From: Gekko japonicus
Taxonomy: Eukaryota
Reading direction: 5' to 3'
Assembly: GCF_001447785.1 (NCBI RefSeq)
Contig: NW_015168044.1
Span: forward strand, 2,775,343 to 2,838,665
DNA: 63,323 nt
Shown here: positions 27,001 through 50,500 of the stretch, one piece after another
Position numbering within the stretch: the stretch's first letter is position 1
How the letters are laid out: every line of letters starts with the position of its first letter
Program-made: the position numbers and the translations under genes
Notes under the pieces: generated by a model
Told to the model about the DNA's origin: nothing
Seen by the model: the letters and a program-made list of their open reading frames with translations, nothing else
Databases searched by the model: none

Positions 27001-30000
27001 TGGGCACCCAGATCCTCCCATCTTTCTCTCGTCCTGTGGGAGACAGGGTTGCCTTTTCCATCTTGGAGGCCTGTGCATGAAGCTGCCTTGGACTGTGTCA
27101 GACCCTTGTCCATCAAGGTTAGTGCTGTCTACTCTGACAAGCAACAGCTCTCCAGGATCTCTTTCCCATCACCTACTACCTGCTCCTTTTGATTGGAGAT
27201 TCCAGGTGTTGAACCCAAAACCCTGATGCTCTACCACCAAGTCACAACCCCCCCTCTACTGCAACAGGAGTAGCTCTCCTTTTTTCAAACATTTAGTTAC
27301 TTCCTTTCTTCTACCTCTGTTGCTAGTTCCTTGATGACCCCGGCTTAAAAAATGACATCCGGAACAAGCCCGTTCAGCTGCCCCTGGCCCATTCTGGCTG
27401 GCTTTTCAAGGAGGAGAGTGATGATCAAGAGGACGTGAAGCATTTGAGCTCCAGCACCGAGGAGATAATGGAAATGGACATACCGTCAGTGAAAGGCAGG
27501 TGGTCCAAATTAGCCACGGGGAGCGATTTGTAGCACTGCCCTTTGGGGACTGTATCACTGGGTATAACTGCTGCAGCCTTATTGCAAAGAGCTGCCCTCT
27601 CCACTGGAACATCCAGCAGGCCCAGACATCTCTGAGATGCCATGAAATGATCTTAGAAATGCTCATTCTTCTCACTGGCCAATTTCCTCTGGTGCTGTTG
27701 GAGAGGCTTTCAAAAGGCTTTACAGAGAATGAGTTCCACAGGCAGAAACCTCCTCCTAGCCAATATCCACTTTAAGCAAATCCTAAAGTTTGGGGATACC
27801 CAGTGCAAATTTTTTTTTTAATTTAGACAGTAGACCTCCAAGTGGAACAATCAGCTTTTGAAATGCCATCAAACCTAAACTAGACACATCTGCATGACAC
27901 CCATCATCTAATAACTTTTTTTAATGGCAAGAAACACTGGGGGGGAGGGGATTTGGATTAGAGCAGCAATGCAGTAGAGTGTGTTCAACCCTTCCCCCGT
28001 GCTTTTCCTGGTCAGTCCCCCCCCCCACACACACACGCACACAATCATTTGTACGCATGAAACTGCCTTATACTGAATCAGACCGTTGGTCTATCAAGGT
28101 CAATATTGTCTACTCTTAACTGGTAGCCACTCTCTCGGGTCTTGAATTAGGGAGTCTTTCACATCATTGTTTTTAGCTGGAGATGCCATACAGAATTTGG
28201 GACCAACTGCATGCAAAACAGATTCTTTGTTATGAGCCATAGCATGGCCCCTCCCTGCAAGGGAAGAGGCAGATGTACCATACAGGAATATTCCCTTCCC
28301 TTGGGGCAAACAGTAGCTGAGGGTTGTTGACAGGGATTTTAATACATGAAAGACTGCAAAGGCAATGGTTTTTTTACAGAGCTCTCTCCCACATCTTAGG
28401 TCCCAGTCCTGATCCTCCCCTAAGCTTCTTATGTCATTAAAAATATAGGGAATCCTGATTATGCTACTTTCCATGCGTATGTGGTGGAGCCAAGACTCCT
28501 GTCTCTAAGAAACACAACCTCAGAGCCCCATTTCCAGTGCACGGCAGCGTCCATGTTGTAAGAGCCTTCTCAGCTACAGCTGGAAGTCACTTGGTAGCTG
28601 AGGGTTGTTGACAGGGATTTTAAAACATGAAAGACTGCTAAGGCAATAGTTTTTTTACAGAGCTCTCTCCCACATCCAGTCCTGATCCTACCCTAAGCTT
28701 CTTTTGCCATTAAAAATATAGGGAATCCTGATCATGCTACTTTCCATGCGTATGTGGTGGAGCCAAGACTCCTGTCTCTAAGAAACGCAACCTCAGAGCC
28801 CCATTTCCAGTCCACGGAGCAAGTTGTGCTGGACTTTGGATCCCAACAGCAGCGTCCATGTTGTAAGAGCCTTCTCAGCTACAGCTGGAAGTCTCTTGGA
28901 TGATCTAAGCAGTTAGAGTAGTATTTGAGCACTCAGATCATACTGCCGTGCTGCAGAGGTCACTTCTTGTGGACAACCTAATCTCATGCTGCTACCCTGA
29001 GGAATGAGAGAACTCGGCACCATGACCCCAAAGGTATCTGTGACTATCCATGAAGGTGGCCTGGAGTTCTGTTGGCTGGATCTCTGCATGCTTGAACTTG
29101 GTGTGCCATATAACAACAAAATAGATATGCAAAGAGAATCATGGAATAAAGGTTCAACAAAAGGAGGGGGGAGTGATATATAATCAAAGACATTATATTG
29201 CAAAAATTATATGTACATTCTACTTAAGTGCAAATGTCCAACACAGTCCTGTTCACCCCAAACAACAAAGTATCAGTGTAAATTGAATTCCGTCACCTCT
29301 TTGTTGATTTAAATATCCTGATTGTTGTTGCTTTGATCCTATTTGTTTGCTTGCATAAATAAGTTCAACAAACAAAATGTGATGCTCCAACATTCTCTGG
29401 AATGCTAAACATTCAAGGTTGGTTATTCAGTATCTCTCAACACTTATCTCCGGTAACACAAGCCCGATGACAGGCAGCTAGCCTGAAAGGCTTTCAAGGT
29501 TCTTTTTAAAGTCAGAAATATATTTCTCAAATCAGAGTCCTTTTGCAACCAATGTATTTCAAAGTATCAGTGTAAATTGAATTCCGTCACCTCTTTGTTG
29601 ATTTAAATATCCTGATTGTTGTTGCTTTGATCCTATTTGTTTGCTTGCATAAATAAGTTCAACAAACAAAATGTGATGCTCCAACATTCTCCGGAATGCT
29701 AAACATTCAAGGTTGGTTATTCAATATCTCTCAACACTTATCTCCAGTAACACAAACCCGATGACAGGCAACTAGCTTGAAAGCCTTTCAAGGTTCTTTT
29801 TCAAGTCGGAAATATATTTCTCAAATCAGAGTCCTTTTGTAACCAATGTATTTTTTCAAAATTGCATCTTTAGATAACAGTCAGTGTTTCAAAGCAACAA
29901 CAATCAGGATATTTAAATCAACAAAGGATGGAATTCACTTTACACTGAGACTTTGTTGTTTGGAGTGAACAGGACTGTGTTGGGTATTTGCACTTCAGTA

Positions 30001-33000
30001 GAATGTATATATAATTTTTGCAATATAATTTCTTTAGTCATATATCAGGCTTTTTCCCTTCTTGATGGAGAATGCATCTGTATCCATGGTGCCAAAAGAT
30101 TGAGTGAGCTCCCATCTCTGGCCCCAGCTTCTGCCAATTTAGCAGTTTGAAACCAAGAAATTGCAAGTAGATAAATAGGTACTGCTTTGGTAGGAAGGTA
30201 ACAGCATTCCATGCACCTCGGCATTTAGTCATGCCAGCCACAGGACCACAGAAACATCTTTGGACAGTGCTGGCTCTTTGGCTTGGAAACGGAGATGAGC
30301 ACCGCACCCTAGAGTCAGACTCAATTAGCTTTCGAGCAAGGGAAACCTTTACCTTTACCTTTTAGAATGTATATATAATTTTTGCAATATAATTTCTTAG
30401 TTACCTATCACAGTGTTTTTTTCCTTCTTGTTATAACAACAAAATAGCCTTGTTGCAGAATATTGGGAAAGGGATTGGAAGTAAAATTGTCTCCTTGATA
30501 CCTTTGTCTGGTGTGGCTGCATCTGGAGTACCATATAGAGTTCTGGCCATTCCAATCCCAAAATGGGCTTTATGGAATTGGAGAAGGTATAGAACTGGGT
30601 AACTGATATGACCAAAGGTTGGGATACTTTCCTAATGAGGAATGCTGAGGGCTCTTTAATTTAGGGAAAGTAACTAAGGGGGATGTGATAGAGATTTAGA
30701 TTTAGTGTGAAGACAGCAGATAGTAAAGTTCATCCTTATAAAACATTCAGGCTCCCATTTAATGAAATAAGCTGGCACTGTTCAAAAGGTGCAAAAAAAG
30801 GTTTCTTTCCATAATGCAGTTTTTTAGAATTCACAGCTGCAAGGTTTGGTGACAGCTGCTAGCCTAAGGTGGATTTAAAAAACATGAGCAAAGAGATTCG
30901 CATTCATAGACGTGTCAACTTTCATGAGAACTTTCATGTTCTGCAACACTGCACCTTTATTTTATTTTTATGCTTTTTATTTGTACTCTTTTCTTCTTCG
31001 TGTGGACCCAGAGTGGCTTATCATATTGTTCTCCCCTCCCCCAGTTTATCCTCACAATGACAACTTTGTGAGGTAAGTTAGGCTGAGAGACTGTGACAGA
31101 CCCAAAGTCCCAAGCAAGCTTTTATGACAGAGCAGAGATTCAAATAGGGGTGTACCAAGTCCTAGTCTGACATTCTAATCACTGCACTACACTACACTGA
31201 CTCTGAAACCAATGGTGGGGCAGGGGGCTATTGTCTCCATGCTCTGCTTGTAGGCTTCTTCAGAAACATTTGGCTGGTGACTACTGGGGAAAGGATGCTG
31301 GACCCTTGTTCTTATTCAGCATGATTCCTGTATCTTAGCCTAGCTAAGCTATTTTGCATCTGCGATAAGGAGCAGTCCTGTGTTTGATGTACACAGGATT
31401 TTCCTTAAAAAAAACTAGAGACATCTCTTCTCCCTGCAGCATCTCTAATGGGGTGCTTCCTGCTTATTCCTCACGGCATGCAATAATCAAAGGATGTTTT
31501 TGTTCCCACTCGCAACACAAAGTAATGGTTGGAAGCCTGAGTTGGAAGCCTCTAGTCCCAGTTCAGCTATAAACTCTCATGGTTTCAGCTCAGTCACTGT
31601 CTCTCAGGATGCTTTGGAGCCAGGAGGTTGAACTTGTCTGGCTTTTGAGTCCTTCCAGCTCTGTGGTCCTGACTGTGCCTCTTGTTCTAGTGAAAGAGGA
31701 GCCCCACGATGAAGAAGAGCCCCCACCTGCTCGCAAACCATCTCTTGCGAAGGCGCCCCCTCCCTTCCCCCAGGACGTGTCCATGGCAGAGCTGCTGCAG
31801 AAGCTGAGCTTGTGCAAGGAAGATGAGTTGCTGTTCTTGCAGCTGCCGGATACACTGCCAGGGCAGTCTCCCACCCAGGATACCAAGCCCATCAAGACCG
31901 AGGTGCAAACTGAGGATGGGCAGATGATGATGATAAAGCAAGAGAAGAGCCAGGTATGTGACTAGAGAGGAATATGTAGTCCAGGTAGAGGAAGTGGTAT
32001 CATAGAACTCGATGGACTTTCGCTGCTTATATTGCCAAACAAAGGGCCCTAGGAAGGACTCTGTCTGAAGTTCTGAAGGAGTTCAGAAAAGCTGCAGGAT
32101 GTGGTATTCGGCATGGGTGTTAGCTTTCTAAGGGCATTGGCTACTTTTAAAACAATTAACATGCCTTCTATACAAATATATATTTTGAAAGTGAGCAGGC
32201 ATTGACTGATGACAAGCAAAATGCAGAGTAATATTTTTCATTAGGACAAGCAAAAGGAGCACAACATAGAATGCAAGCTGATTGGTCCTTACAAGTTAAA
32301 AGTATTACATGGCTTTTAAAAAAATTTTTTGCTTCGGATCAACACAATTGTCTGTTTTGGGGACCTGCAGCAATTCCTCTGGCTTCTGCTGCAAGATTTC
32401 CTGTGGCAGAGGTTTCATCAGTGCCCTGATAGGTCTTGTTCTGCCCCAGGGCAAGCAGAATAAATTATGCAAAATAAGAGTTCACATACATTTAACTTAT
32501 CCTGGTCTCAGGATTCTAGCTGGGCAACTTGGGTTCATGATTTTGGTATATTAAGCACAGTGTACAAGTCATACTGATGAAAGGCCAGTAAAGGCACAAG
32601 AAACCTAGATGTCGCTTTGCATTTCTTCCCAGCTTCCCAGGACGCAAAAGGTCAGCTCCCCCCAAATATAGGAGCTGCTTGTAACCCGCCCCCGCCCCCT
32701 TTCTGTCTTTTCAGGAAGCTAAAGAAGCTGAGAACATCTGCACCCTGGGGGACCTGTCAGAAGGGCAGGTGGGGAAGCTGCTGGTCCGCAAGTCAGGGAA
32801 GGTGCAACTCGTGCTGGGCAGGGTGACCCTTGATGTGACCACAGGGACTCCCTGCTCCTTCCTTCAGGTATGGCTGGCGCAGAAAACATCTCTGTTGTAC
32901 TGTCCTAATCAAGGCAGTAGGCGGCTTTCCTTCAAAGTTCTCATCCTCTACCAGTGGGAGATGAGCAACAGCAGAGAACAGTTCTTGCCCTGCTTATGAT

Positions 33001-34489
33001 ATGGGCTTCCTGGAGGCATCTTATGGGCCCAGTGTGGGCTGCAGTAACTTGAAGGGAAACTTGGTCTGTATAACTGTAAGCAGTTAAAGTCAATTTCACC
33101 CATTACATTCTTAGAGGAACATCTGAAAAAGTGAATTGCGACTTTGGTAAATGATTAGTTGCAAATGCTTGTCTTGGACAGGTGTGCTAATCAGCCAGCC
33201 AGCATTAGTTGCAGCTCTTGGTCAAGTGTAAACTGGATGCTAAACCTGGATTTGCTGGCTGTGTAATATGTGAAATGTTCTCAAAGACACTCTTCAGTGA
33301 CTCTTAGGAGATCACTTGTATTAGAGTTCATTGAGCAGGGTACCAAACTTGTGTGTATAGTGTCAGTCGTGAAGGGGATGTGGGTGTATAAAACACACTT
33401 CGTGCCCTGATCTGGATAACCCAGGTAAGCTCGATCTTGTCAGATCTCAGAAGCTAAGCAGGGCTGACCCTGGCAAGTACTTGGAAGGGAGACCTCCAAG
33501 GAATACCAGGGCTGGGACGCAGGGGCAGGCAATAGGAAGCCACCTCTCTGAAGTGTCCAGGCCCCAATAGGGGTCACCAGAAGTCAGTCATGACTTCCAG
33601 GCATATACACATACAAACAAACACTCACCAAAAAAAATACACTTCATGCATCTGACAAAGCAGGCTCTAATCTTGCACCATGATATATCCGTCTAGGCTT
33701 CGGTGTATCATAAGAGTCTTCATTGTTCTTGTTGCAATAGATTCATACAGCCACCCTTTTGGAATCTGTTATCAAAATACATATAAATGAGGCCTTCCCT
33801 ACTCAGGCTGTTTTTCTTGGCCAATACCACAGTTTATGAATTCATAATTGACAATATCATAACTGACATAATGCATAGATGCTTATGCCCCTGTTACAAA
33901 ATGGTCTGTATGAAGTACGCTTCTCTGTCAGTAATTTGGAACAAGTTTTTTTCAAATCCCATTCGAAGCAGGAGCCTCCAAGCACTTCAAAAGATTTGGC
34001 CGCCTACCTGCCCAGTGAATCTCCATTGAGTATCCTAGGCTACTCCTAGAGAAGTCACAAGAGAAGGGTTGAGGTTTTCCTGAGGGAAAGGATAAGAATC
34101 ACTACATGCCTGTTTCCCTGTGTCCCATCATGAACTGTAAGACTGGCAGAGAAGCACCTCTGTCACCATTGTGTGTCAAGTTAGACTGTCGGGGCAGGAC
34201 AAGGGTTCTCTGCAACTAGAATTTGCTTTCTCCTAGTGGTTTATTAAGAGTCCTCGCAGGTCCACCTCTGCAGGGGAAAAAATACCCTTAGTCAACCATA
34301 GGTGTGTGTTGATTGCAGCATTACGGAGGTTTTGGTTATAACAGTGTTTTCTCTTGGTCTTGGAAGGAGCTGGTGTCAGTGGGCATTGGAGACAACAGGA
34401 GTGGTGAGATGATCGTCCTGGGCCATGTGAAGCACAAGCTGGTCTGTGCCCCAGACTTTGAGTCCTTGCTGGAACACAAGCATCGGTAA
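14885..34489 (+). CDS. POLR3D: DNA-directed RNA polymerase III subunit RPC4; spliced CDS of 8 exons, 1188 nt, 395 aa
   Basis: Exons 14885-15043, 23872-23915, 24388-24539, 26802-26926, 27327-27495, 31691-31953, 32715-32867 and 34367-34489 join in frame. Motifs RLPSIRSRDLTLGGVKK, EVIQSHSIFEQGPAE, PVQLPLAHSGWLFKEE, LLFLQLPDTLPG, GQVGKLLVRKSGKVQL and LGHVKHKLVC...KHR* match vertebrate RPC4. Confidence 0.97.
15985..16220 (-). mobile_element. 5S rRNA-derived SINE (SINE3 type) with (CA)n tail
   Basis: Reverse complement GCCCGATCTCGTCAGATCTCAGAAGCTAAGCAGGGT...AGTACTCGGATGGGAGACC follows the 5S internal promoter region, then a non-5S body. Confidence 0.85.
17413..17636 (-). mobile_element. Partial second copy of the 8129-8502 hAT/Charlie element
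   Basis: CAGGGGTGTCGAAGTCATTTGTT...GGCCAGGCCATGCGTGTCATAAAATGTAATGCCAGG is the reverse complement of that element's right end. Confidence 0.75.
18471..20421. mobile_element. About 1.95-kb non-autonomous hAT element with an internal ~180-bp repeat
   Basis: TAGGAGTGTGCA...TGCACATCCCTA termini; exact TSD GTAGGGAG at 18463-18470 and 20422-20429; internal duplicated block at about 18680-18840 and 18860-19020. Confidence 0.8.
23872..23915 (+). CDS. POLR3D: POLR3D coding exon 2
   Basis: KTFAPNIISRKIKE(E); long polypyrimidine tract plus CAG; donor GTAAGT. Confidence 0.95.
24388..24539 (+). CDS. POLR3D: POLR3D coding exon 3
   Basis: PKEDVSIKKEKKERDRDRQRDGHGRGRGRPEVIQSHSIFEQGPAEMMKKR; TAG acceptor, GTATGT donor. 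Confidence 0.95.
26330..26680. mobile_element. hAT-type MITE
   Basis: CAGGGGTT...AACCCCTG TIRs; exact TSD GGTAACAC at 26322-26329 and 26681-26688. Confidence 0.88.
26802..26926 (+). CDS. POLR3D: POLR3D coding exon 4
   Basis: (G)TWDKTVDMSDFGPSHIINIKKEKRETDEETKQILRMLEKDD; CAG acceptor, GTGAGT donor. Confidence 0.95.
27327..27495 (+). CDS. POLR3D: POLR3D coding exon 5 (GC donor)
   Basis: FLDDPGLKNDIRNKPVQLPLAHSGWLFKEE...DIPSVK; the frame requires the donor AAG|GCAGGT. Confidence 0.9.
28057..28245 (-). mobile_element. tRNA-derived SINE with CR1-like 3' end
   Basis: CATGAAACTGCCTTATACTGAATCAGACC...GAGCCATAGC; related copies at about 21030-21170, 27075-27250 and 59630-59810. Confidence 0.6.
28313..28899. 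repeat. About 281-bp imperfect tandem duplication
   Basis: GTAGCTGAGGGTTGTTGACAGGG at 28313 and 28594; the second unit carries an extra segment of about 30 bp. Confidence 0.85.
29193..30033. mobile_element. Penelope-like insertion: two 294-bp direct repeats inside ~145-bp inverted repeats
   Basis: Direct repeat starts at 29266 and 29560; 29888-30033 is the reverse complement of about 29193-29337; each unit has a CCGATGA-stem-GAAA hammerhead-like motif. Confidence 0.55.
30095..30362 (+). mobile_element. Sauria SINE
   Basis: AGATAAATAGGTAC...TTTAGTCATGCCAGCCACAGGACC...GGAGATGAGCACC...(ACCTTT)n tail. Confidence 0.8.
30470..30890 (+). mobile_element. Degraded CR1 LINE 3' fragment
   Basis: CATCTGGAGTAC...AGTTCTGG...TTGGAGAAGG...AGGGGGATGTGATAGAG...GAATTCAC motifs typical of the CR1 3' end; a similar remnant lies at about 12420-12640. 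Confidence 0.55.
31691..31953 (+). CDS. POLR3D: POLR3D coding exon 6
   Basis: (V)KEEPHDEEE...LLFLQLPDTLPGQSPTQDTKPIKTEVQ...QEKSQ; TAG acceptor, GTATGT donor. Confidence 0.95.
32715..32867 (+). CDS. POLR3D: POLR3D coding exon 7
   Basis: EAKEAENICTLGDLSEGQVGKLLVRKSGKVQLVLGRVTLDVTTGTPCSFLQ; CAG acceptor, GTATGG donor. Confidence 0.95.
33404..33637 (+). mobile_element. 5S rRNA-derived SINE, second copy
   Basis: GCCCTGATCTGGATAACCCAGG...GATCTCAGAAGCTAAGCAGGG...GGGAGACC; CA/A-rich tail; imperfect TSD AAAYACACTTCRT. Confidence 0.85.
34367..34489 (+). CDS. POLR3D: POLR3D last coding exon
   Basis: ELVSVGIGDNRSGEMIVLGHVKHKLVCAPDFESLLEHKHR-TAA; AATAAA candidates near 35501 and 36276. Confidence 0.95.
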   Translation, partial: ELVSVGIGDNRSGEMIVLGHVKHKLVCAPDFESLLEHKHR

Positions 34490-37400
34490 AAAATGAGCCG
34501 TTGCAAAGTCTTCTGGCTCTTCCTGAGGGGGTCTTACAAACAGCAGTATCTTTGGCTGCCCAGAAATGCCTTCTTCCTGGACTGATGGATGAAGACTTTC
34601 CTAGAGAAGTCTGGCTGCACTGCAGTGAACTGGAACAGCATGGCATTCTATTGCATTTGGGCACCGAGAGCTGAAAAGCCTCTTGCAGGTGACACTCGTT
34701 AAGGGCAGTGGAAACCAAGGGCTGGTGCAAAGACCTAGCAGCTCTGGTTAGCAGGACCTTTACTTACATGGTGCAAGACTTAATGTTGGCACAAGCAATC
34801 CCAAGAGCAAAAACCAGTGGGGGTATTTGAGACTTGGAGCTGAGATCGGCTGCTTGGTAGCTGTTTAATGCAGATGGAGGAGGAGTGGGCTGCCCCCATT
34901 CCAAATCCCTGTGTAAGCCCTTAGGGTGAGGCCTACTCCTTGTGCTTTCCTAATGAGTCCTTGCAGCCGCACGCTGTAGCTGTAGCGAAGGAAGATGAAG
35001 TGTTAGGTGTGTGGGCGTATTCCCAAGAAGCAAAAACGACATGGTCCCCCAAGCCATTCTCATGATGTACTCCCTAAGTCTTGAAGCCTGAGTCAGATTG
35101 GACATTTGTGTTTCAAAATTTATTCCTATAGCTTTTTCCCCCTCCTTTGAGCAGAGGCAAAACTTTTGTGCTTTTTAAAAAAGTCTGCTTTCCAGGCCTT
35201 GGGACTTTTGCAGTGCCCACGTAATGTGTGGCAAAAACCACGCCAGGCTTCCTGGACGTATTATGAGATGATACAAAGATAAGCCAGAGAGGGAGGAGTC
35301 GCCTTGCTTTTTGCTCCCGTCTGTCTGGAATTGCTCAGCGCCATCTTTGATGGTGGGAATGGTGACGATGCAGACGACAACACTGGTCTAGGCTTATTTT
35401 CCCTATTTTTGTCCTACTGTCCAGGCATCACGCATGCAAAACAGATTGTCTCTTCCAGCAGCTGGGAGAGGGGAGGGGTGCATGCAGGAAATTGTGCCAA
35501 AATAAATTTATCACTAATCATCTCTTGGAGATGAAAAATTGTGCTTATCTGCAGCCTGGTTTTGGTCGAGGGCTGCCTTGCTTTTCCATTTTAGCCCAGT
35601 TTTTGTTGTGTGTTTTAATCATTGGGCATGATGACACCAAAGCTGTGGTTGGCTGGCTCCTTATGGTACCCAGGAAAAGAAGACAGTCAGTGGTGCCAAA
35701 TGCTCAGGCTTTGGGTATATGGCAGAGCAACCACTGTGATCTATAGATAGTTTTGAGGATTTTTTTTTAAATTCTGAGGGATTTTTGAGGAATCACATGG
35801 AAACAGCGGAGTTTGTGACTAAATATGGGTATGACTTAAAGCCAATTCCTTATTTAAGCACACTGTTCTTAAACAGGAGCAGTCTCATCAAGCAAGACAA
35901 GGTGCTGGAGTATCCACAGCCCAAATCTCCAGCATGTTTGTATTACTAAATAGCGCCATCAGGTGTTCTCATTTCGATCTAGGTGCAAAGAGGGCTTACT
36001 TCTTCTCCACTATGCTGTTTTCCTGACCTCAATTGATCCTCCTTGAAACTGCTGTTTGTCCCACTGAGGCAAAGCAAATAGGAATGTGGAGTGGGGGAAT
36101 CTGTTACGGAAAGGTTCAATCCATTGCTCTGCCATACCATGACTCACATCTGAAAGGCTGCTAGTAGCAATTTAAAAATGTGTGAAATCTCTTCACAGGG
36201 TTACTCTGAACATTGTTTGATTGGCCCATGATTGTTGCAGTGCAGGGGTAAAGTTGTTGGACTCTGCCAGGTGTCAATAAAATCACTCTGAATACAATGC
36301 AAATGTTTGAACTGTGTTGTGTTCCTAAGCATTCTCTGGTTCCTGATGTTTGTGGTCATGGATGCAGATCGACTGAAAGCTGTAACTTAACAGCCAAATA
36401 CTGCAGATTTTTCACAAAAGTACTAAGCGTCGTGCAGATTTCAACATTTATTCAGGTATTAGCAGATTCTTTGAAAATAAATCTGACATTTTAAGATGAT
36501 GGATCTGTAGTGATAACAGGATACTTGAAACTGTACAGCCTGCACCAATTTGGAAACTTAATTATAGCTGCAAAATCATGGAATAGTAAAGGACAGGGTG
36601 AATAGAATTGGATATTAACGGACTGCAAGCAGAAGTGTAGTAATTGAGGCCAAAGACAGAGCTATGAAGAGCAAAGAATGCCCTAGTAGACCCTGGAAGC
36701 CCCAATCAGGACGTTCAGCTGACATTTCCTGGACTTTTTCTTGACACCTTCAGAATTAGAAATTTGTTCACCATATGTATTTAGCACTGAAAACCTCTTG
36801 GCTGATCTTTCCTTGCATGTAAGAACCTGAGCCACAATTAGGATTTTGGAGCAGGCCATTAAGTCAAATGGCATAAGTTCTTTCTATCTGCTTTCTTGAA
36901 TAATTTTATATATCTCCTACCATATTTTCCCTTACCTGTTTTTTTTTTTCTAAACTGAGATGTCCCAATAACTTTAGGGAATGATCTCTAACTTTGTCCT
37001 TTCCTGTACCTTTTTGAGCTCTACATGCTTTCCAAAATGGGATAACCAAAACAAGCCAGAGGGGTGATGTAGCAGCCACTTTCAGATTCAGGGAAATGTT
37101 TTATGAATAACCCCTGGTGTGCAAACAAAGCTGTATGCGGCCGGGTACTAAGAGGGCTGGGCAGAAGAAAAAGGTGGAAATTGAGGCTGCAGCAAACTAG
37201 AGCTTTGTAAGAGGCAGAAAAAAAGAAGGTACCAAAAGGAACATGTGCTTCGGGAAGGCAACGGGGATGTTAGTAATGGTGGATGGATTGTGGAGGACCT
37301 GAGCGGCAGTTGTTTGGGGGTTTCATCCTGAGAAGGACCAAGGGAAGAAGTAGGAAATAAAAACAGTTATTTCCCCCCTTCTACTTGGTTCATCTGTTCT

Positions 37401-38185
37401 TTGCTGTTGAGAGACAAGTAGAGAATAACTTAAGGATTATTAATGGGTCAAACTGAATTTGGCAGCATCTGCTGTCACCACACCTCTAAACTGTTACCTG
37501 CATGACCGCAGTGTTTCATCTGATGGTGGCCACTAATTTGACTCTGGATTATCAGTTTAGTTCAAGGGCATTTCAGGTATCTCAATCCTTCTGTAGTTTT
37601 TGAGTAGCCAGTTTGCAATGTGTTTCTCTCTGTACAGGTATCAGCAATAGGGCTTATACTTTTATAACATGGAAGGTACTGAACATACCACGTGTATTTC
37701 TCTCAATTTGGCTGCTTCCTGGTTTCCCCACTTCTTTCAAGTGTGGATGGTTCTGCATATCTAGAAGGACCAACAACGTGCCCTTCTATAGTAGTAATAA
37801 ATGGCTAAGTGAAAAGAGGGGTGCAATACTCCAGAGAAAAGCTTTTAAATAGGGTTCATCTGTGCTAATGAGGTTGGGTTTATTGCTTGGTCCTTCACAG
37901 AGAAACTTTCTTCTCCCACTGAGTCATGTGCAACTGCAGGCGAATAGCTGGACAACGTTCTTTAAAATTGTGTATGATGTCTTGATTTCTATTTCTGTGG
38001 CCTTTAGCGCTAGATATTTTGAGAATGGCCCAGTATGGCCCACCATTTAACATAATCTCCACAGGGGCTTTAGTGCCCTTTCCAGCATTCATGGCTAGTG
38101 ACTTAGGTTCTTCCTTTTGACAAACTCCAGATCGGGAAGGTACAAAACGAAAAGTGTCCCATTTGGAAGATGTGCTGGTGGTCAC

Positions 38186-38629
38186 TCACTGTGCATGTTT
38201 ATTGGCACAAGTTGTGATGTAATGGGCCATCTCAAAAGCCTTCATGTTTAATGTTCCTCCCTGTATACCCTTCTGGCCAATCAGGATTAGGCACACAGAA
38301 TTGACCAGGACTACAGTGATGGCATGGGTGCAGCTCTCTCCATTGTCACGATAAAGCTTGGTCCGGAGATCCATACTGTATTGATGGGCATCTGTATAGA
38401 GATTATCACGTATGACGAAACACTTGAGGCCACCAAGGGTCAACCCTTGGGTAAGCAGGTTTTCTCTGTTCCTGCCAAGAAGAGCTTGGATCTCTGGCTT
38501 GGTCAGTTTCGCCAAGATGCCCCCTTGGTGGGCAGCTAAGAATTGCTGTTGAGCTACTGACAGAACTGCTGCATCCCAGCACAATCCATCTTTCATCAAG
38601 CTGTTGATGTGTTCCTGCCAGACAGTCAT
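38186..38629 (-). CDS. Divergent profilin-family protein, single coding exon, 147 aa
   Basis: Profilin motifs: N-terminal W, DG.C.DAA, GLTLGGLKCFVIRDNL, SMDLRTK, LIGQKGIQGGTLN..AFEMA. Open full-length ORF; minus-strand AATAAA at 37879-37884; pyrimidine-rich acceptor 42 nt upstream of the ATG. Confidence 0.9.
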   Translation of the reverse strand: MTVWQEHINSLMKDGLCWDAAVLSVAQQQFLAAHQGGILAKLTKPEIQALLGRNRENLLTQGLTLGGLKCFVIRDNLYTDAHQYSMDLRTKLYRDNGESCTHAITVVLVNSVCLILIGQKGIQGGTLNMKAFEMAHYITTCANKHAQ

Positions 38630-39639
38630 CTGGTGATCAAGAAGGCTTTGCAGTTAAGTCCGCCCTGCAGCCTGTTCAGAAGACGGGGAAGAGAGTTCTC
38701 CTTTGAGCTTCCCTGTGGATGTTAGGCTAATATTCCACTCCAATAATCTCCAGGTTGGACAGATGAACAGAATCTATGAAAATAGCTTTTTGTCCATCAC
38801 ACAATGTGCTTTGTCTCAAAAGAATTATTTCAAGTTAAGAGGAGGTGAGGATGCTGATGCTTGCTCATAAGTGCATTTCCTTCCAATGCTGGCAACTATT
38901 CCCAAGGGTAGCTCAAAGTGGAGGCTTCTGGATTCCCAAATCCTTCAGTAGTGTCCTCAATACCTGGTAGCTACTGAAAGCTTGGCATCTTTTCATGGAC
39001 TTTACCTTAGAAACCTGCTAGAATTTTGGTAGCAGTAAGATTCACTGGCTTTGATGTCATAAAGAGAATTTGAGCAGGTCGAGTCAATCCTTTGTGTGTG
39101 TTAGTATGATTTTCTTGATGGTCTTTGTCTGAACTTCTCACTGTGTAGTCTTCTGATGGCCTTTGTCTGAACTTCTCATTGTATTCCATACAGACAACCT
39201 GTTTACCATTCACTGGCATCTGATGTGTGATCAAACTCTCCTTCCCAGTTCGTAGGGTCGTGCAGGCTTGCCTCAATGAAGTGTGCTGAATCGCCACAGT
39301 ACATTGTGGTCCATATGGACCCAGTGTATGTCTCAGTAATTTCAGCCTTTCAGTCCATTTGTAAATCGACTAAGCTCTTTTTTTAATGCTTTATGAATGA
39401 TCCAATTTTAGGTGCTTCAGATAAAAGGAAGAATCCAGAAACCACTGACCCCTCCCATCGGCCTTCTCTTGTTTTGAAGTGAGAGACTGCACTAATAAAA
39501 AGTTACAGGCTTTTCCACTTCTGTATTTAAACATCTTGAATGCTTTATTTATGATCGCTTACTGTTTAAAGACGAAGCTGCAAAAGGAATGATCTACTAC
39601 TGCTGTAGCTTCTTAGAATGAGAGATATTGAGAAACACT

Positions 39640-39933: not shown

Positions 39934-40905
39934 ATGAATTCTCAAAATGTGGCAAGTCAATTTGAAGAAATGGATACATCTGACACCCAGTGGGGATGGT
40001 TTTACTTGGCTGAATGTGGGAAATGGCATATGTTTGACACTGATTCCAGTACTCACTGTTCAGTTAGCACAGAAGACATTGAAAGGAGCTTCAGAATGAA
40101 TCCACAGGGCTCTGTTTGCTTCACAAGCGCAAAATTTACTTACACATTAGACTTTTCAGGGATGAAGCAGACCAACCTAACAACTGGAAAACAACGTCCC
40201 ATAAAACGGGCTCCATTTTCCATCACTGCTTTCAGTTATGTCTGCGAAAACCAGTCTATCCCTATACCTTCACACTGGGAGAATGTAAACTCTGAAGAAC
40301 CTTACCAGCTTATTCCTTTGCAAAAGCAGACAAAAGAGTATAAAGATGTTGCTAGTCTTTTTGGGAAAACAATGGAAGGCAGTTGGATTAAAGGAATACA
40401 GAGAATTCAGAATCTAGACTTGTGGGAATTTTTTTGCAGGAAAAAGAATCAGTTAAAGAAGAAAAGAGGCGTCTCTTTCATTAATGAACATATGTTGTTT
40501 CATGGCACCAGTGGCGAGTTTGTGGAAGCCATCTGCATTCATAACTTTGACTGGAGAATCAATGGCATGCATGCTGCTGTATATGGAAAAGGGACGTATT
40601 TTGCTAGGGATGCATTGTATTCGAGCCGCTTCTGCAAAGACGACATGAAGCACAGCAGTACGTTTCAGATTCATGGTGTTGATCTGCAACTTCATATGTT
40701 CAGGAAGCATAAAGTGATGTTTCTTGCTCGCGTATTGACTGGAGACTATATTACTGGGGACTCAAAATACGTGAGGCCACCTTCAAAAGATGGGAGCTTT
40801 GTAAATCTGTATGACAGTTGTGTGGACAACACATGGAATCCGAAGATTTTTGTTGTCTTTGATGCCAACCAGATCTATCCGGAATATTTAATAGAGTTCA
40901 GCTGA
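39934..40905 (+). CDS. PARP11: Protein mono-ADP-ribosyltransferase PARP11 (WWE + PARP catalytic domain), intronless, 323 aa
   Basis: MDTSDTQWGWFYLAECGKWHMF (WWE), RIQNLDLWEFFCRKK, MLFHGT, YGKGTYFARDA, YDSCVD..WNPKIFVVFDANQIYPEYLI match PARP11 end to end. H-Y-I catalytic triad retained; no internal stops; first ATG at 39934 (the track starts at GTG 39928). Confidence 0.95.
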   Translation: MNSQNVASQFEEMDTSDTQWGWFYLAECGKWHMFDTDSSTHCSVSTEDIERSFRMNPQGSVCFTSAKFTYTLDFSGMKQTNLTTGKQRPIKRAPFSITAFSYVCENQSIPIPSHWENVNSEEPYQLIPLQKQTKEYKDVASLFGKTMEGSWIKGIQRIQNLDLWEFFCRKKNQLKKKRGVSFINEHMLFHGTSGEFVEAICIHNFDWRINGMHAAVYGKGTYFARDALYSSRFCKDDMKHSSTFQIHGVDLQLHMFRKHKVMFLARVLTGDYITGDSKYVRPPSKDGSFVNLYDSCVDNTWNPKIFVVFDANQIYPEYLIEFS

Positions 40906-41471: not shown

Positions 41472-41598
41472 TCAGTCTAAAGCAAGTTTTTTCAGAGCTG
41501 ACGTGGCAGATGCAGCTCCCTTGGACTCTTTCATCTTCTCTAGGGCAAGCAGAAGGTCAAGCTGGGTAAGTGGCCGTAGCTGTTCCTCTTCCAGGTCA
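41472..41598 (-). CDS. atad1a: atad1a-like last coding exon
   Basis: (S)[44 protein letters not shown]; minus-strand AATAAA at 41209-41214. Confidence 0.9.
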
Positions 41599-44500
41599 CT
41601 GGACATGGACACACACATGGACACACACAAAAGAAAAACCAGACAGGGCTCATGGAATAATGTTTGAAATAAGGTAAGAACTTCTCAGCTTCCTGAGTTT
41701 TCTTGACCATGAGTCCTTTGCATTTGCAGTTACTAAAGATAATGTTTTTGCCAATGCCCTTCATTGCAGCTGCAGCATCTACCCACACCCTGTTTGTTTG
41801 AATATGTGCCATTTTTAGAACTGCAAAGTAGAAGAGAAGTGGCAGTATAATTATGTGACTCTCTCATTAATTTCAAGAGGAGATTATCACGTTCTTGCAA
41901 GTCATGCCAGTAAGGCATCATTTAGCAATCCTTGGGGTAGAAGACATATCAAGTAACCATAACCTGAATGATACCATTGGTTCCCCCAGCTCTTCATTGT
42001 CTCCTATGATTGGCAACAGCTCTTCAGGGTCTCGGTCAGAGAAAGGTGTCCTTTAAGTGGAGATGCCAAAATGTTCTACAGGCAAATCATCTACTTCAGG
42101 AAGCAGTATCCTACCTTACTACTGTACCATATTCATCTCTGTTCGCATGGACCTATGAACATATGAAGATGCCTTAGGCCAAGGCCTTCTTTCCCTCCCC
42201 CCCTTCCGCATTTTTGGCTTTGAGTTCCTTCTCCCCCTGCCCAGAAAATGGCCAGGTAGTCCAGAACCAGGATACAAAATGTACAGGATGCCATCTTGGA
42301 TCTCTTTATTCTGGTTCTCTTAGTTTTTATCAAATTGTAAATTGAATTGTACTGTTTTGTATATTTTTACGGCATTATGCCCCCCTCCCCCCGTACATCA
42401 GCCAAAGCCCAGCATAATTGGGGACAGGGCGATTAACAAATTGAACTAAGAATAATAGTACTAATATTGGCCCGCTTAGCTTAGTGTTGTCTACCCCTCT
42501 TGGCAGTGGCTCTCCAGCATCACAGGCAGAAAAAGATATTTGCTAGCACTTGAGGCCCTTTTTGTAGTGAGTGGGGATAGAACCTAAGAAGTGTAAAACG
42601 TGCTCTACCTCCCATAGTGCATCATGGCTCTTCCCATGTGGTGTTGCTGAAAGCCTGGGCCACAGAGGAAGAATCCTTGCTTCAGTTTCTTCCTGTACTA
42701 ATGTTGCTCCAGTACCAAGATGAGACAACAGCTTGACCTCCCACCATGTGGCCTTAAATCTCTACCATTATCTAGAAAACAAGGCTGGACAGATGAAGGT
42801 TTGTTACATATTTCATGATGTCAAAAGCTGATGAATCTAGGGAACTGGGGTCCAGCGGCTTCTGGCGACAGTGCCAGGAAAGGTCAGGTGCAAGGAGAGA
42901 AGGGCTGTGGGATGAACAAAGGCTCACCTGTCCTCCTCGCTGTCTGTATCGTGGAGCATCTGTGCAATCTGCTTCATCTGCTGCCTGCGAACATAATCGC
43001 GTACCCTGTGCATGGCAGCATCCCGGCACAATTCTCGCAGGTCGCTGCCCGAATAACCATTTGTTTTCTCAGCCATCTCCTTCAGGTCCACAGCATTGCT
43101 TAGCTGTTCCAAGAGCAAAATTCCCCTCAGAGTTATAATGGTTGGCCCATACTTGCTCCCTGCACTGTCACAGCGTTGCTACACCTAGGCAGAGGGTCAG
43201 GTCTTCCTGCTTCCCTGTTCTGCCTTCTAAGGAATGAAAAACTTCTCATTAATCTTTTGGCCCTTCCTCCTCCTACTGAACCCTTATGCTCTCAGCAGGC
43301 ACAAAATGAGTGGCGATATGATCTTAAGGGTTTAGATTCCACACTTCAAAATCAGGCTGACCTCACAGATACTCCCTCTCTGCTGGGGACCTTGAGAAAT
43401 GTAGTTCTGTGAGAGGAGTGAGTGATCTTTAACAAAATTCTCAGTACTCATCATGTGTCCACATTTTCTTTGTGAAGGAAGTTCACTTAATTTTTTTCAG
43501 GCCTAAATTCCCTGGATTCCTTTAGAGGCTGAGTTATTTGAACTCTTAAGGGATTTTTTCCTTTGTTAGTGTTAGCACATGAGCTTTGTTTTAATGTTGT
43601 AAAATAACTGGTAGTTATTTGTACTTTTTGATTCTAACATCATTTTTGTAGTTTTAATGTTATGTGCTGCTTTGAAACCAAAACAGTGCCTAACAAAAAT
43701 ACCTGCAAATATATCAATTACAGTTCCTGGGACTCTTCTGGGAAAACTTATATACATTTGTGAGATAGACTTTTCAAATCTATAAAAGTATTCTTGACCA
43801 ATACTGTTGTGTTCCCCGCTATCCAATCTAGTTTACGGTTTATCTCTGTCTGGTGAAGCTACAGTTCTGAAACAGAAAGGGGAAGCTGGGGGGGGGAGCA
43901 AGACTCACATTTTCTCCAGACAAAATGAGTTTCAGAATATCCTGCCGTTGCCTCTGTGTCTGAAGAAGACAGAAAAGAGCATGGGATTGAGAGACTATTA
44001 GAACTGGAGGCTGAGAAAATAATGACAAGCTAATATTTTTGCTGAGTCCCTAGAGTATGCAGAAACCTGCATTTGGTCTGTGAGTAGCCTTGTTTTGTTG
44101 TCCTGCTGCTTGAGAGTAAACTTGATGTTGCTGTGCCTGTTGAAAGGAGTGATACTGCTTCTATACTAGAAGGCTCCATTTAGTTATCATTACTAATAGG
44201 TCTCCCAGTGGCTTTCATTAACTGTTCTTAAAATTCCAGTTGTCATGACCATCGCCTGTTTTTACACCAGGCAAGCCTCCTAATTAGGCTTGCTCAGGGG
44301 ACATGGGAGAAAGAGGCAAGATTGGATTTTGTCACTGCAGATGGAGGAACATGAGGAATCCTTCCGTAAGTTAAAAATGCCCTGCAAATAGAACACAAGC
44401 AGAGCAGGGGGGCAGGTCCTTTGTCTCTGCTGGACTAGTTTTCGCATTGATTTTTTGTTTCATGCAAAGGAACATACAAAATAAGAGTCGATTTGCTGTA

Positions 44501-47500
44501 GTTTGAAGAGGTGTTGTCCATTCTACTACCTCATCCTCCTGCATATGTGGCATTTTAAAATGTGTGTGTTGACTATCCCTTGAAGTGAATGTATGATCTT
44601 GTCCTTGGAGCTGTCAATTTTGGTCCACCATTTCTGTTGCTTGGAATTATTTTTATCCTGATTTGTCTGATTTTTCTAGATGGGGGCTGCTTCTTAAACA
44701 ACATCCCAGATACGTGCAATTGTTTTTATTATTATTATTATTATTCTTAAGGGTTTCTCCCTATTAATTGCTTATAGCAGGATGAACAATTCTTTTAATG
44801 CCAGGGAAAGCAGATTTTTAGAGGAACTTAGCGTCAAGAAAACCATTTGAAGGAAACAGATTTTTGAGTCTGAGCCTTGCAAGCTTAATATTGGGCAGCT
44901 TTAGGAGGGAATAAGTCTGGATGGTGACTGGATTTAGGGGAGAGCAGTAAAATTTACTTACAGGCAGACCAATCTGGAAGGTTGTGGGCATCCTCCGCAG
45001 GATGGCAGGATCCACATCTTGGGGCCTATTGCTTGCTCCCAGCACCATCACCTGGAATGCAACAAAGCGGCTAGTTAGATTGTCACCTGATAAAAGAAAT
45101 GTTAGTTGATTAACTGCATGAGATTTGACTGCTGCATGAGATTTGACTGATGCTCAATTTGCATATGCTTGTATGTGGATATAACAAAAGGTCTTTGTGT
45201 TTGACTAGGATACTGGAAAACTGTATAGAGATCCCCACTCAGTAGCAAAGCTCAGGCAGGGCTAAAAATGGGGATTTGTATATTGGTCTCTCCCCAGTTA
45301 CAGCCCAACACTCTAAACCCAACACCACAGTGGCTCTCTAAGTCATCACTGTCCAGGGAAGGGGAATTTAGCAGGCCAGGGAAGAAGTTACCAGCCATTT
45401 GGGCTTTGCCCTCACAGCTGATCAGTGTAAATGTAATAAGATGGTGTCAGGGCTGGAACCTGACCCCTTGTGAGAGCTGGAGTTCCCACAAGAAGCCGGG
45501 ACAAACAGCGAGGCATGTGCAGTGTGCCAGGCCTTCTTCAAAAGGGTGAGGGAGGCTGGCCAAGGAGGGCAATTTACCCTCTTGTTACTGGCTGTGTGGA
45601 CAGGCGCCAAAGGAAGGGAGTCGGAGGAGGGTGCTGTAAATGCTCTCCAAGATAGAATTACCAACACTGGGTTGGGAAATTCCTGGAGATTTTGGGAGCG
45701 GTGCAACAGAGGAAAAGGCAGGAAAAATTACAGCTGATGGAGGAAAGTGTGCACAAAGCTGCCATGCGGATATTCAGTTGCCTTGCTCTGCCTTGCTTCG
45801 TGTCATCTCAACCAACGGCTTCCTGGTAAGTGGTACCTGGCAATTGGGTCCAGTTTCCAGCCCATCCCAAAGGCTCATGAACTCTGCTTTCATCATAGCT
45901 GTGGCTTCATGATCAGCATCGGAGCGGTTCCTCAGGAAGGCATCTGCCAAGAGGGATAAAAAGAATGGCTCAGCATTGGACTTCTGTCCTTCTCTGCACT
46001 GGCATCTACTTCCACTCCACTAGCACCTTGAAAACATTTTTCTCTTTTGACCTAACCTAAATCTTACATTTTCTTTTCAACAGAAATCATGAAATGCAGC
46101 CAGTAGGAGTGTTCAAAAGTCTACTTGTGTCTCCTGTTATAAGATCCCACATTTCTGGCTGTCCTGAATCTCTTTGTGGAACAGGCAGCAAAGGTGCTAC
46201 TGGAAAGTTGGTTGCAATGGGAAGGTGTTCCATTCACATTTGGAGAATCTGAAATCTCTCAAGTGAGAGAGGATCTCACAGAACTGCATAAGGGGATATT
46301 ATAAGCTGCCTTCATTTCAGACTTGCTTGCATGTCTAGCAACTAACATATCCTAATGAGAGGAGCAAAGACTGCCATCTTTAAGAAGCCTGGGGATAAGA
46401 TATCAGGAGCTAATGCAAGTGTACAAAGGTAGGCAGCATCCAGTGTTCACCCAGTCAGCTGAAGCCCATCCTTATTGCCACAATTCCATACATATGCCTA
46501 TTATTTGGTGGGCATTTTGCTAAATTTTCAGTCGGTTTCAGGCCTGCACAGCTTCTTGCAAATACTTGCTGATGAAGCATGAAATGCAGGTTTAACTCTC
46601 AGCCCAATTACAGACTTGATTTAAATCCATTCCTTCCTTTCCCTCAGCATCAGTGTTTCCGTCAGCATAAGAGGAATACTTGCAATACTTTAATGATTTG
46701 CCTTTAGATTCAAGAATATGGTGCAATCTGAAATCCATCCTGTTCTTTAAATTCTCCAAACCACACTAAATCTTTCTCTCTATAAAAGGTGTTCATATTG
46801 CAAACATTACACATGAGTTATCCCTTGGTCACTTTACTGCAACAACAACAAAAAAGGTAAGGGTTTCACTTGATCAAACGAACACTGACCTAGCACAGTG
46901 GTCTGCTTACAACAATGGCACTTCTAGGAAGCCCCTGAGCAAGACCCCAGTACAAGGAAGAACTCAGCATTGTGTTGGGATAAAGGGGCTGAGATGCAAC
47001 AGAGTTGCATAAAAAATACCCAGTTATCATTTTTAGCAAAGGACTGTAACTGGCATCCTCACTACACATTAATATACAACGCAAAGATAATAAATACATT
47101 CAGCTGTGTGATTAAACTTGGGTCTGCCCCAGTCATGTCTGGGGAAAGGACACATTTACTACATTATGGGTTTTTCTGCATGTCTAATATTTATCGCTTC
47201 TGTGCCCATACTGTGTCATTGGGATTTTTTTTGTTTTTGCTTTCAAAATGTTCACAAATAAACAGGAGATGCAGTGATGAAATACCAAAGTGATCACTAG
47301 AGGATGCAAAACACTTGTGGAGAAGGAAAAAAAAACAACAACCTGAGGCAACACAGGCACACAAACAAGGGTAACAGGCGCAGAAAAGCCCTGAGAAAGG
47401 AGAAAGGTGGGTGGGCCTAGAAACAGTCTAGGTAAATCAGTAAACAAGCCCTGCCCTCATTCATGATAGTCTGTCCCCTCGCAGGGCTCTTTTTTTTGCT

Positions 47501-50500
47501 TTCAAAATGTTCACAAATAAACGGGAGATGCAGTGATGAAATACCATATTGATCACTAGAGGATGCAAATCACTTGTGGAGAAGGAAAAAGGATTGGCTA
47601 CATTAGGGATGTGTCGCCTAATATGTAGAGGAGTTCCTGCTACAAAAAGGCGGCTTCAGGTACTTTTCTCCTTTATCAAATTCTGCTCCCAGAACAAAGC
47701 TGGGATGTGAAAAAAGTGCTTGTGAGGAGAGACTGTGGTGACGCAAGAAGCAAGCCAGAGGAGGGTGCAGCTCCCTTCACCTACATGTTCCATTTCTTTC
47801 AAGCTATAACTTTCCCCCTTGTTAACTATTAAAAAGATATAACTATAATTGGGGAAATGAAAGAGCAGGCAGGGATGTAGAAATTACCTATTTCATCTAT
47901 GAAAATGATGCAGGGTTGGATCTTGGTTCCCAAGGAGAAAACTGCAGCCGTGAGCTTCTGTGACTCTCCATACCATTTGTCAGTCAAGGTAGAGGCTTGC
48001 AGGTTTATGAACCTGCATCCCGATGCCTGGGCTGTTGCTTTGGCAAGAAGGGTTTTGCCACAGCCAGGAGGACCATAAAGCAAAACACCTGGTGCAAGGA
48101 GAAACTCATTAATTCTCAGTCTCCCCCCTTCCTTGCCAGGCTTTATTCCCCCCCCCATTGTTTTTTTTGCTTGTGTGAAAAAGGAACGTTCTTCACATGA
48201 GACTTCAGTAGAAGAGAGCAAGCATCCAGTAGCATCTTAAAGACTAACAACAGTTGTGGTAGGGTATGAGCTTTCATGAGTTACTGCTCACCTCTTCAGA
48301 TACCACCTTGCTTTATCAGTATGAGACTCCAGTGAGTGTTTAATGAAACCTGCACCAATCTTAACATACAAATGTGACTCATATACTGCAGCTGGTACAA
48401 CCTGACTGCTTACAGTCCAAGGTAAGCAGCAAAAGCAGAAGCGTTATGTTTCTGTAAAGCTAGGATTTTTTTATTTATTGCTCTGTTCAACACACCTACA
48501 TGGTTCAAAAATGTCCAGTTCCTTTTTCATGGGGCTACTGATAACAATTTAAAATTTGATAATTTTTTCTCTAGTGGAACAACAAAGATTTTTTTCTTCA
48601 AATGCATGTGATAAATAATGAGTTTAAGTTTAAATAATCTTTCATAAATGTGGTTATACTGGGTTTAAATTGAATGTTTATTATTTAAATATTTAAAGTA
48701 CCTTTCATAAGTGTTGATACATTGGGTTTAACTTGAATGTTCATTTACTTGAATCCTGTTTTAATGCAGATTTCAAATATGGAAATATAGATATCACCTT
48801 TATCTTTAAAGAAATAATGCCCACTCAAATTTTGTTAATACAACAGAACACCTGTTAACATTCCACTTCACAAAGTATTGGAGGCAAACACTTTTTATAC
48901 TGCAAATGCAGAACTGACTCTGTATCCATGCAGACATACTGTGAAACAGTTTTACCTTTCTCCTTCCTAGCTAGCTCTCATAACTGTTTGGGAGAAGACT
49001 ATCATTCTCAGAAAACTGCTGGGTATTTATTAAGCTGCCATTAAGTAAGGAGCTTTACACCCCTCTATCCATCACTCCTTGGGATCTAGGCTCCAGCAAA
49101 TGAGTGGAGGCAGATCCTGTCAGAGGTCCAGAAAGGCTTTTGAGGCCCTTAGCCATTAAAAGAAACCTTAGTTGTGAAACGTATCAGCCAAAAAATAAAT
49201 GTCTTGAGGTCCCTTTGAGTCTGATGCCAAATGGCCCTCCCTCTGACTGGCTGTGAATGGGGTTTTTAAAAGAGGCAAGTCTGAGAAAAGGTACTGAGTG
49301 ATTTATGACTGGCTCTTCTCCAAGGTGTACCTCGTGGGGGTTGGCAGAGCCTGGAGTGATGGAACAAGTGCCTCTGCTGGAAAGGCAGGATCACTGTGTC
49401 CTGAAGTTCGCTGACCACTTCATCCAGGCCCGCGATATCCTTCCAAGAGACCTGAAAATGGAACAGCATTTGGAGCCTTCAGAGATAACAAGAGGACTGT
49501 AAGCTACCTGGCAAGGGAAGCCAAATGCTGCATGCTGGCATTTCAGATTTTGGAATTGGCATGTATTCATCCCTTGCATGGTGATGGAGTTCCATTAATT
49601 ATATGTAAAAAATTCATTTCCATTTTCATTCAATTCATTTTCAGATTTTTGCAATCTCATATCTGCTGATAGCTTTATCCCCCTTTACTCCCACCTTGAA
49701 AACTCTCTAGTCTTCATCAGGGGGAACAGCAAGCTCCCCTTCTTACTTGTATGTCCTTCGGGTCCACCAAGTGAGCTGCGATGTTCATCTCATGTTCTGT
49801 AAGCTTCACTCCTTCTACTCCAATCTGCTTCATCAAGCGTTCTGCCTGCAGAAAAAAGACAACGGGTTCAGGTCCCACTCTTGCCCTGTGGCTGGCTCAG
49901 TCAACACAACCTTTCATTATGGTTCTTCCTAGCTGTTTATTTACACCTGAAACTACTAGAATATGCACAGATTGTAATAGGTTAAACTGCAGTATAGCAA
50001 AACTCCACCCCCATTCTTTCTTTCTAGTGTATTTGGAAGATTTTGTATCACGCGATACAGTCAGAGACTGTATGGGAAACAGTTGGACCATTTTATCATG
50101 TTCCCCGAATACAGTTTTGGTAGCTACCCATTATCTCCAGATTCAACACTTGTCAGCAGTGACCAGGGGTGTAGTCACACGGTCCATCTGATCGGGGTTC
50201 ACCACTGTTCTCTCTCGCATTTAAATTTTCTATTCACATGTGCCAATCGGCCTCCTGTGCCGAAGCAGGCTCACTCCCTAAATGCTCCCGGGTTTTCCTG
50301 CCCCCAGGGAAAATCAAGTATTTTCCTGGCACTTGCGCTTTGAATGTGCGATTTTGCCCATCTGGACAGCCATCTTTTGCAATTATTGTGATTAGGGCCG
50401 CTCTGACCACTCTGTGCGATTTTTTTTTTAACTTTCTGGCTTTGAGTGCTTGAGTAAACAAGTGCTCATCCTGCTTGGAGAAAAGCCCTGCCCGCCGTCC

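Follow-up and report, generated by a model that had tools for sequence, protein, structure and literature searches.

The window (the whole stretch of Gekko japonicus DNA that was analysed, 63,323 nucleotides of contig NW_015168044.1) carries on its minus strand, at positions 38186..38629, an intronless profilin coding sequence of 147 aa, and the question arises which profilin this is and what its product might still bind. The preliminary description had proposed a fifth vertebrate profilin fitting none of PFN1-4, with remodelled poly-L-proline (PLP) and actin faces. Judging from sequence comparison, the gecko gene is very probably an intact member of the PFN5 clade, so that the paralogue implied to be unnamed already has a name, from mouse Pfn5 and human PFN5P. 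It probably serves in the testis, where it would bind monomeric actin and proline-rich partners weakly and would not feed formins or VASP as PFN1 and PFN2 do.

The reading frame is a real gene with a profilin fold. It stayed open in none of 2000 base shuffles, and the Pfam Profilin model (PF00235) scored 65.3 bits on it against a cut-off of 25, which places it in the family. As had been noted at the outset, it is free of introns like PFN3, a single coding exon being seen in the ORF itself and in relatives' contigs, which run unspliced across it; the protein ends in TTCANKHAQ. The structure prediction suggested earlier gave a confident profilin fold (AlphaFold, pLDDT 85), for which VIA-align returned profilin-beta-actin 2btf_P as the top match (Z 23.2, rmsd 1.6, 137 residues) and Foldseek a PFN1/2-like fold at TM 0.83-0.85. 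The closest named protein, from the gecko Heteronotia, is 97% identical, and databases call these PFN5-clade proteins 'profilin-1/2-like'. An atlas feature search ranked a 153-aa profilin cluster first for gecko PFN5 and for the teleost protein P0107 alike, which we treat as a lead only.

In the first homologue search 18 proteins were matched, namely those of squamates, turtles and the alligator, Logan proteins and one rodent sequence (P0018, 49%). The latter belongs to a eutherian PFN5 group of 57 proteins; P0158 and P0135 correspond letter for letter to the mouse and dog rows of the published PFN5 alignment, as given in the accessible part of PMC6886504. Gecko PFN5 and mouse Pfn5 are 45% identical over 138 aligned columns. 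The amphibian and shark members escaped the word-based searches and came to light in the full HMMER scan alone (235 proteins at E ≤ 0.001, best 150 listed), in which the newt Pleurodeles, the frog Discoglossus and a six-shark cluster scored above PFN2. No bird, marsupial or monotreme PFN5 was identified among the matches inspected (the homologue searches and 44 of the best 150 of the 235 HMMER rows, 10 of them named), and such searches cannot show absence; a metagenome scan for related loci gave 98 pattern matches, none of them confirmed. When the mammalian protein P0018 was searched against the gecko genome, the PFN5 locus came first with 120.9 bits, followed at 78.8 bits by a full-length PFN1 retrocopy, the sole fair comparator, since spliced paralogues are scored exon by exon in such a search. 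A shark protein also matched the PFN5 locus best (124.8 vs 108.7 bits, spliced genes again being scored exon by exon).

Trees were inferred with IQ-TREE under LG+C20 from 18-36 rows hand-picked from approximately 330 proteins, with fragments, fusions and near-duplicates left out. In all five of them gecko PFN5 and eutherian PFN5, including mouse Pfn5, formed one clade (UFBoot 95-100); four trees supported the sauropsid-eutherian grouping at 98/96, 97/94, 100/100 and 95/92. A tetrapod clade with frog, newt, turtles and alligator received 99/97, and tetrapods together with sharks and two probable teleost proteins (one from Paramormyrops) stood apart from PFN1/2/3 at 98/95, while a grouping of sharks with PFN2 was not rejected by the AU test (p=0.056). 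The same test rejected the union of sauropsids with PFN3 (p=0.0009, 0.0013 and 1e-5), with PFN2 (p=0.0003) and with PFN1 (p=0.0006), as well as that of eutherian PFN5 with PFN1, PFN2 or PFN3 (all p<0.001). Columns common to sauropsid and eutherian PFN5 and absent from four PFN1/2/3 rows numbered 7, and each of the two remaining pairings had fewer (5 and 3), a thin margin. As sister group of PFN5 the tree gave PFN3 at no more than 57/80, and PFN2 was not rejected in that position either (p=0.41). The phylogeny that had been called for thus upholds a fifth profilin, with its own clade, AU rejection of PFN1, PFN2 and PFN3, and separate PFN1-4 genes in the same genome.

In the accessible text of Mudge et al. 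2019 (PMC6886504), mouse Pfn5 is an intronless, testis-specific profilin-like gene, human PFN5P (chrX:64,405,660-64,406,074) is a pseudogene with a stop common to apes, and PFN5 was probably formed by retro-insertion. In our trees the clade extends to amphibians, and probably also to sharks and teleosts; because of this breadth, PFN5 is probably an old vertebrate gene and not a mammalian retro-insertion as published. Its origin would then go back at least to the ancestor of tetrapods, and probably to that of jawed vertebrates. An age greater than that of sharks would be compatible with an origin in the era of whole-genome duplications.

The residues of gecko PFN5 were mapped in PFN1 numbering through a HMMER alignment with human PFN1, with the PLP and actin contacts taken from the available portion of PMC2694148. 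On the PLP side W3 is kept, Y6 is replaced by H, W31 by L and Y139 by N, with a tail four residues longer, and H133 has become Y, an aromatic retained as in PFN2. Two of the five aromatics of the cradle W3/Y6/W31/H-Y133/Y-F139 (W3 and Y133) are therefore left, fewer than the canonical set. On the actin side, Y59 is replaced by L, H119 by Q and K125 by M, and K69, R74, R88 and K90 are kept; among the contacts F/Y59, R74, R88, K90, H119, K125 and Y128, three of seven are identical, one is conservative (F128) and three are changed, so that the canonical set is again incomplete. Beyond these, N99 has become A, R135/R136 have become T/T, three residues are inserted after MDLRTK, and the beta1-beta2 loop is one residue shorter than in human PFN1. 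Every residue that the preliminary description had listed by eye, including an insertion of about 3 aa, holds in this alignment, and erosion of both binding faces is indeed seen; the aromatic at 133 had been overlooked.

How far these changes characterise the clade was counted in 39 sauropsid and 56 eutherian PFN5 proteins, some of them partial. W3 is kept in 37/39 sauropsids and 46/56 eutherians, and Y133 in 33/39 and 54/56, respectively. Leucine occupies position 31 in 37/39 and 55/56, and the rows for amphibians, sharks and teleosts have it too; W31L is, as far as these alignments go, a mark of the whole PFN5 clade. Position 6 is Y in 25 of the 39 sauropsids, H in three, all gecko-like, and C in 47 of the 56 eutherians, and position 139 is seldom aromatic throughout. 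On the actin face K90 is invariant in both sets, R74 and R88 are present in all 39 sauropsids (54/56 and 50/56 in eutherians), K/R69 is found in 37 of the 39, and F128 and N124 are mostly kept. Position 119 is Q in 38/39 sauropsids and E in 52/56 eutherians, position 125 is L or M and position 99 is A in both groups; H119, K125 and N99 are each replaced in 38-39 of the 39 sauropsid proteins. Shark members have H119 and K125 intact, and these residues were lost in tetrapods. According to the part of PMC2360229 at hand, H119E in PFN1 is the standard laboratory mutant without actin binding, so most eutherian PFN5 proteins carry natively the same change as the laboratory null.

H119Q is milder than H119E, and W3 and Y133, together with Y6 in most reptiles, remain; weak binding is what we would predict from these sequences, and it may persist. 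A stronger version of this view leaves the PFN5 identity as it is and takes the reptile form for a working low-affinity binder of G-actin like PFN3, with the eutherian H119E form alone non-binding. The basic patch conserved in sauropsids, the retention of F128 and N124, and the intact H119 and K125 of sharks speak for it, as does PFN3, which in the accessible part of PMC2694148 binds actin in spite of the same Y59L change, and PLP with half a site. However, the replacement of H119, K125 and N99 in nearly every sauropsid exceeds what PFN3 has lost, and W31 is gone clade-wide. We regard this as the main alternative, although a less likely one.

It is less plausible still, and on balance improbable, that PFN5 is a phosphoinositide specialist in the manner of PFN4 or the poxvirus homologues, with no protein partner on its actin face. 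PFN4 binds lipids and neither actin nor PLP, and the accessible text of a preprint on A42R counts R74/R88/K90 among the residues of the PIP2 surface too. The phosphoinositide sites K125, R135, R136 and PFN2a R104/R107 are nevertheless absent from gecko PFN5, its net charge is +2 and that of eutherian orthologues -3 to -8, and the gecko fold is nearer to PFN1/2 than to A42R. The possible phosphoinositide binding suggested earlier accordingly finds no sign of a gain, and the likeness to poxvirus profilins can be called convergent only, as gecko PFN5 is 20-21% identical to A42R vs 38-40% to PFN1/2.

The neighbourhood of the gene bears on its history. A candidate polyadenylation signal, AATAAA, probably lies approximately 300 nt past the stop (37879..37884, minus strand); of the relatives' contigs there, which are RNA only by guess, X3 ends at ~37930-37965 and X2 runs beyond. 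Tail-to-tail with PFN5 is POLR3D (24345..36250, plus strand, outer bounds approximate), recognised from an RNA_pol_Rpc4 exon at 32715-32876, other exons placed by eye, and RNA reads at 36000-36400. Upstream on the same strand as PFN5, domain search and exons reveal a multi-exon ATAD1-like AAA ATPase (41475..52737, minus strand), and a PIWI gene follows 117 kb further on; POLR3D and PIWIL2 are presumably adjacent on human 8p21. In two gene models from turtles, P0022 and P0040, ATAD1-like exons are joined to the profilin, and these exons map to the gecko locus at 45-76% identity, so the link between PFN5 and the ATAD1-like gene is old in reptiles. In sea turtles (P0022, P0024) the Walker B motif of the ATAD1-like protein reads IDKIG, vs IDEIG in the gecko, which suggests that the turtle protein may be a degenerate ATPase.

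Head-to-head with PFN5 and 1.3 kb from it lies a WWE+PARP retrocopy, which we take to be PARP11-like (39934..40905, plus strand), identified by domain search and by the exons of its parent. It is intact, intronless and 323 aa long, shows as much as 95% identity with exons of the multi-exon parent on contig C6831, and may share a promoter with PFN5. Just before the PFN5 ATG (38630-38660, minus strand), gecko, snake and turtle have conserved bases, translated as DHQ/DHR, which together with a branch-like CTTAAC look like a splice acceptor; an intron in the 5'-UTR is possible, and no joint was seen. A promoter motif scan, run without a control, found one CRE-like octamer at ~39055.

The gecko gene lies by POLR3D, the ATAD1-like gene and PIWI, and human PFN5P at chrX:64.4 Mb, so synteny is not shared and one of the two copies must have moved. 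The long eutherian branch and the N-terminal extension suggest that the placental copy may be the mover: eutherian PFN5 would have moved to the X, or an X copy would have replaced the ancestral one. Our claim for PFN5 is hence one of clade membership and not of positional orthology. ZC4H2 is spread over three small contigs of the gecko assembly, and with the X-syntenic region fragmented in this way another PFN5 copy might lie there.

These differing positions, together with the long eutherian stem (0.73-0.83) and the 8-residue N-terminal extension and acidic pI found only in eutherians, could also mean that reptiles and eutherians each have a duplicate of their own, the two looking alike through long-branch attraction or parallel loss; the gene of reptiles would then be a sixth, unnamed lineage. 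We consider this very improbable, as every separate placement tried was rejected by the AU test, branching within the clade is roughly that of the species, amphibians falling outside the amniotes, and the genome searches gave no second PFN5-like locus.

The gecko genome holds five separate profilin genes, PFN1-4 and PFN5. PFN1 is spliced and accompanied by two broken retrocopies (L002 and L003, one with a stop and one with a frameshift), and PFN2 is spliced with 2a/2b last exons. PFN4 is read as one uninterrupted 128-aa ORF (L021 1495-2031, minus strand); human PFN4 is multi-exon. Genome search also located an intronless PFN3-like gene (L006 1316-1722; G000:C15650:551596-551996), 33% identical to gecko PFN5 and in a 100/99 clade with a coelacanth 'profilin-3-like' protein. 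That the PFN5 locus is instead the 1:1 reptile PFN3 orthologue in a genome with no other PFN3, which both being intronless might suggest and which the preliminary description had considered, is refuted by the trees (AU p≤0.0013) and by this separate gene, and has next to no chance of being true.

A separate PFN3-like gene therefore exists, a point that the preliminary description had wanted confirmed, but it is flanked by a MOSC-domain (MTARC) gene on one side and RDD1/KA1-domain (C1orf115, MARK) genes on the other, presumably the block of human 1q41, and not by SLC34A1/F12. In mammals PFN3 adjoins SLC34A1 (PMC8877773, in the part available); an SLC34A search of the gecko genome turned up a single exon, on a different contig, which says little on a second PFN3. 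With this position, and with the sister group of PFN5 as loosely fixed as described above, the earlier case for PFN5 as an ohnolog of PFN3 via 5q35/8p21 is weak. Both intronless testis profilins, PFN3 and PFN5, may have moved in mammals. LINE fragments, which we take to be RTE/BovB-like, are plentiful around the PFN3 locus too, and in the window they occupy 224-592 and 62172-62540.

As to expression, relatives' contigs from three runs, which are RNA only by guess, are unspliced over the PFN5 ORF; X2 and X3 run across it at depth 9-13, and X1 is partial at depth ~2. One raw RNA run from an unspecified tissue, of which 3% was read, had no reads on the ORF and covered the POLR3D 3' end. This pattern is compatible with tissue-restricted expression, and by analogy with the mouse orthologue, gecko PFN5 would be expressed in spermatids. 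RNA reads on the PARP11-like ORF may come from the multi-exon parent and not from the retrocopy.

It is tempting to suppose that PFN5 is a spermatid profilin uncoupled from formin/VASP actin delivery. Its part would then be that of a stabilising partner, or adaptor, for an actin-related protein of the testis, for acidic membranes, or for both, possibly at the acroplaxome-manchette, with the kept R74/R88/K90 patch as its contact surface. The adaptor role is drawn by analogy with PFN4 and with PFN3, which partners the actin-related protein ARPM1 in the accessible text of PMC8632698, and we hold this mechanism tentatively, at slightly less than an even chance.

The gecko genome also contains an intact intronless 376-aa ORF of cytoplasmic actin type (L038 1498-2628, minus strand). 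Other long ORFs related to actin, each in a single frame, number at least nine, and these are candidate partners of PFN5.

A bolder and doubtful scenario makes PFN5 a fifth jawed-vertebrate paralogue from about the time of the genome duplications. Poly-proline binding would have gone from the very start, with W31L, and actin binding in steps (position 119 being H in sharks, Q in reptiles and E in placentals), until the protein served an actin-related protein of sperm as its dedicated partner; the gene would have moved to the X in placentals and been lost in apes. If true, PFN5 would be an H119E profilin made by natural evolution and bound up with the evolution of ape sperm. With or without this scenario, the presence of PFN5 across tetrapods and probably in sharks makes an old, conserved paralogue of what had passed for a mammalian retrocopy, gives more meaning to its loss in apes, and makes the series at position 119 a natural test of the way in which a profilin parts from actin. 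The available part of PMC8632698 still gives mouse and human four profilin genes each; we found no functional study in the literature on Pfn5/PFN5P/Gm45800, and no paper covering the clade by title or abstract in that on vertebrate profilin phylogeny, where Polet 2007 and Pandey 2017, known to us as references, may hold such sequences under other names. The age of the clade, its relocation and the natural position-119 series seem to be new here.

Finally, we would like to set gecko PFN5 beside the known systems. PFN4 and orthopoxvirus A42R are likewise profilin folds with actin and PLP binding reduced or lost, but neither is close, PFN4 scoring 2 bits on the reptile PFN5 profile and A42R having the low identity given above. 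PFN1 and PFN2a resemble gecko PFN5 in fold (Z 22-23, rmsd 1.6), in overall identity (38-45%) and in R74, R88, K90, K69 and W3; unlike it, they are multi-exon and have the full aromatic PLP cradle and the H119/K125/N99 actin contacts. PFN3, a testis profilin, is similar in being intronless, in its partly eroded PLP site and in L59, as far as the available parts of PMC2694148 and PMC8632698 show, whereas it forms a separate clade at a separate locus and keeps W31, H119 and K125 while losing Y133/F139, the reverse of gecko PFN5, which loses W31, H119 and K125 and keeps Y133. The closest system is mouse Pfn5 (Gm45800, ENSMUSG00000109858) with human PFN5P (PMC6886504, PMC7779007), of the same clade and with a single coding exon, which shares with the gecko gene W31L, N99A, K125L/M, the loss of H119 and the beta1-beta2 loop deletion. 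The gecko gene lies by POLR3D and the ATAD1-like gene and theirs on the X; the reptile form is without the 8-residue N-terminal extension, has Q and not E at position 119, mostly keeps Y6, and is a basic and not an acidic protein with a longer beta5-beta6 loop.
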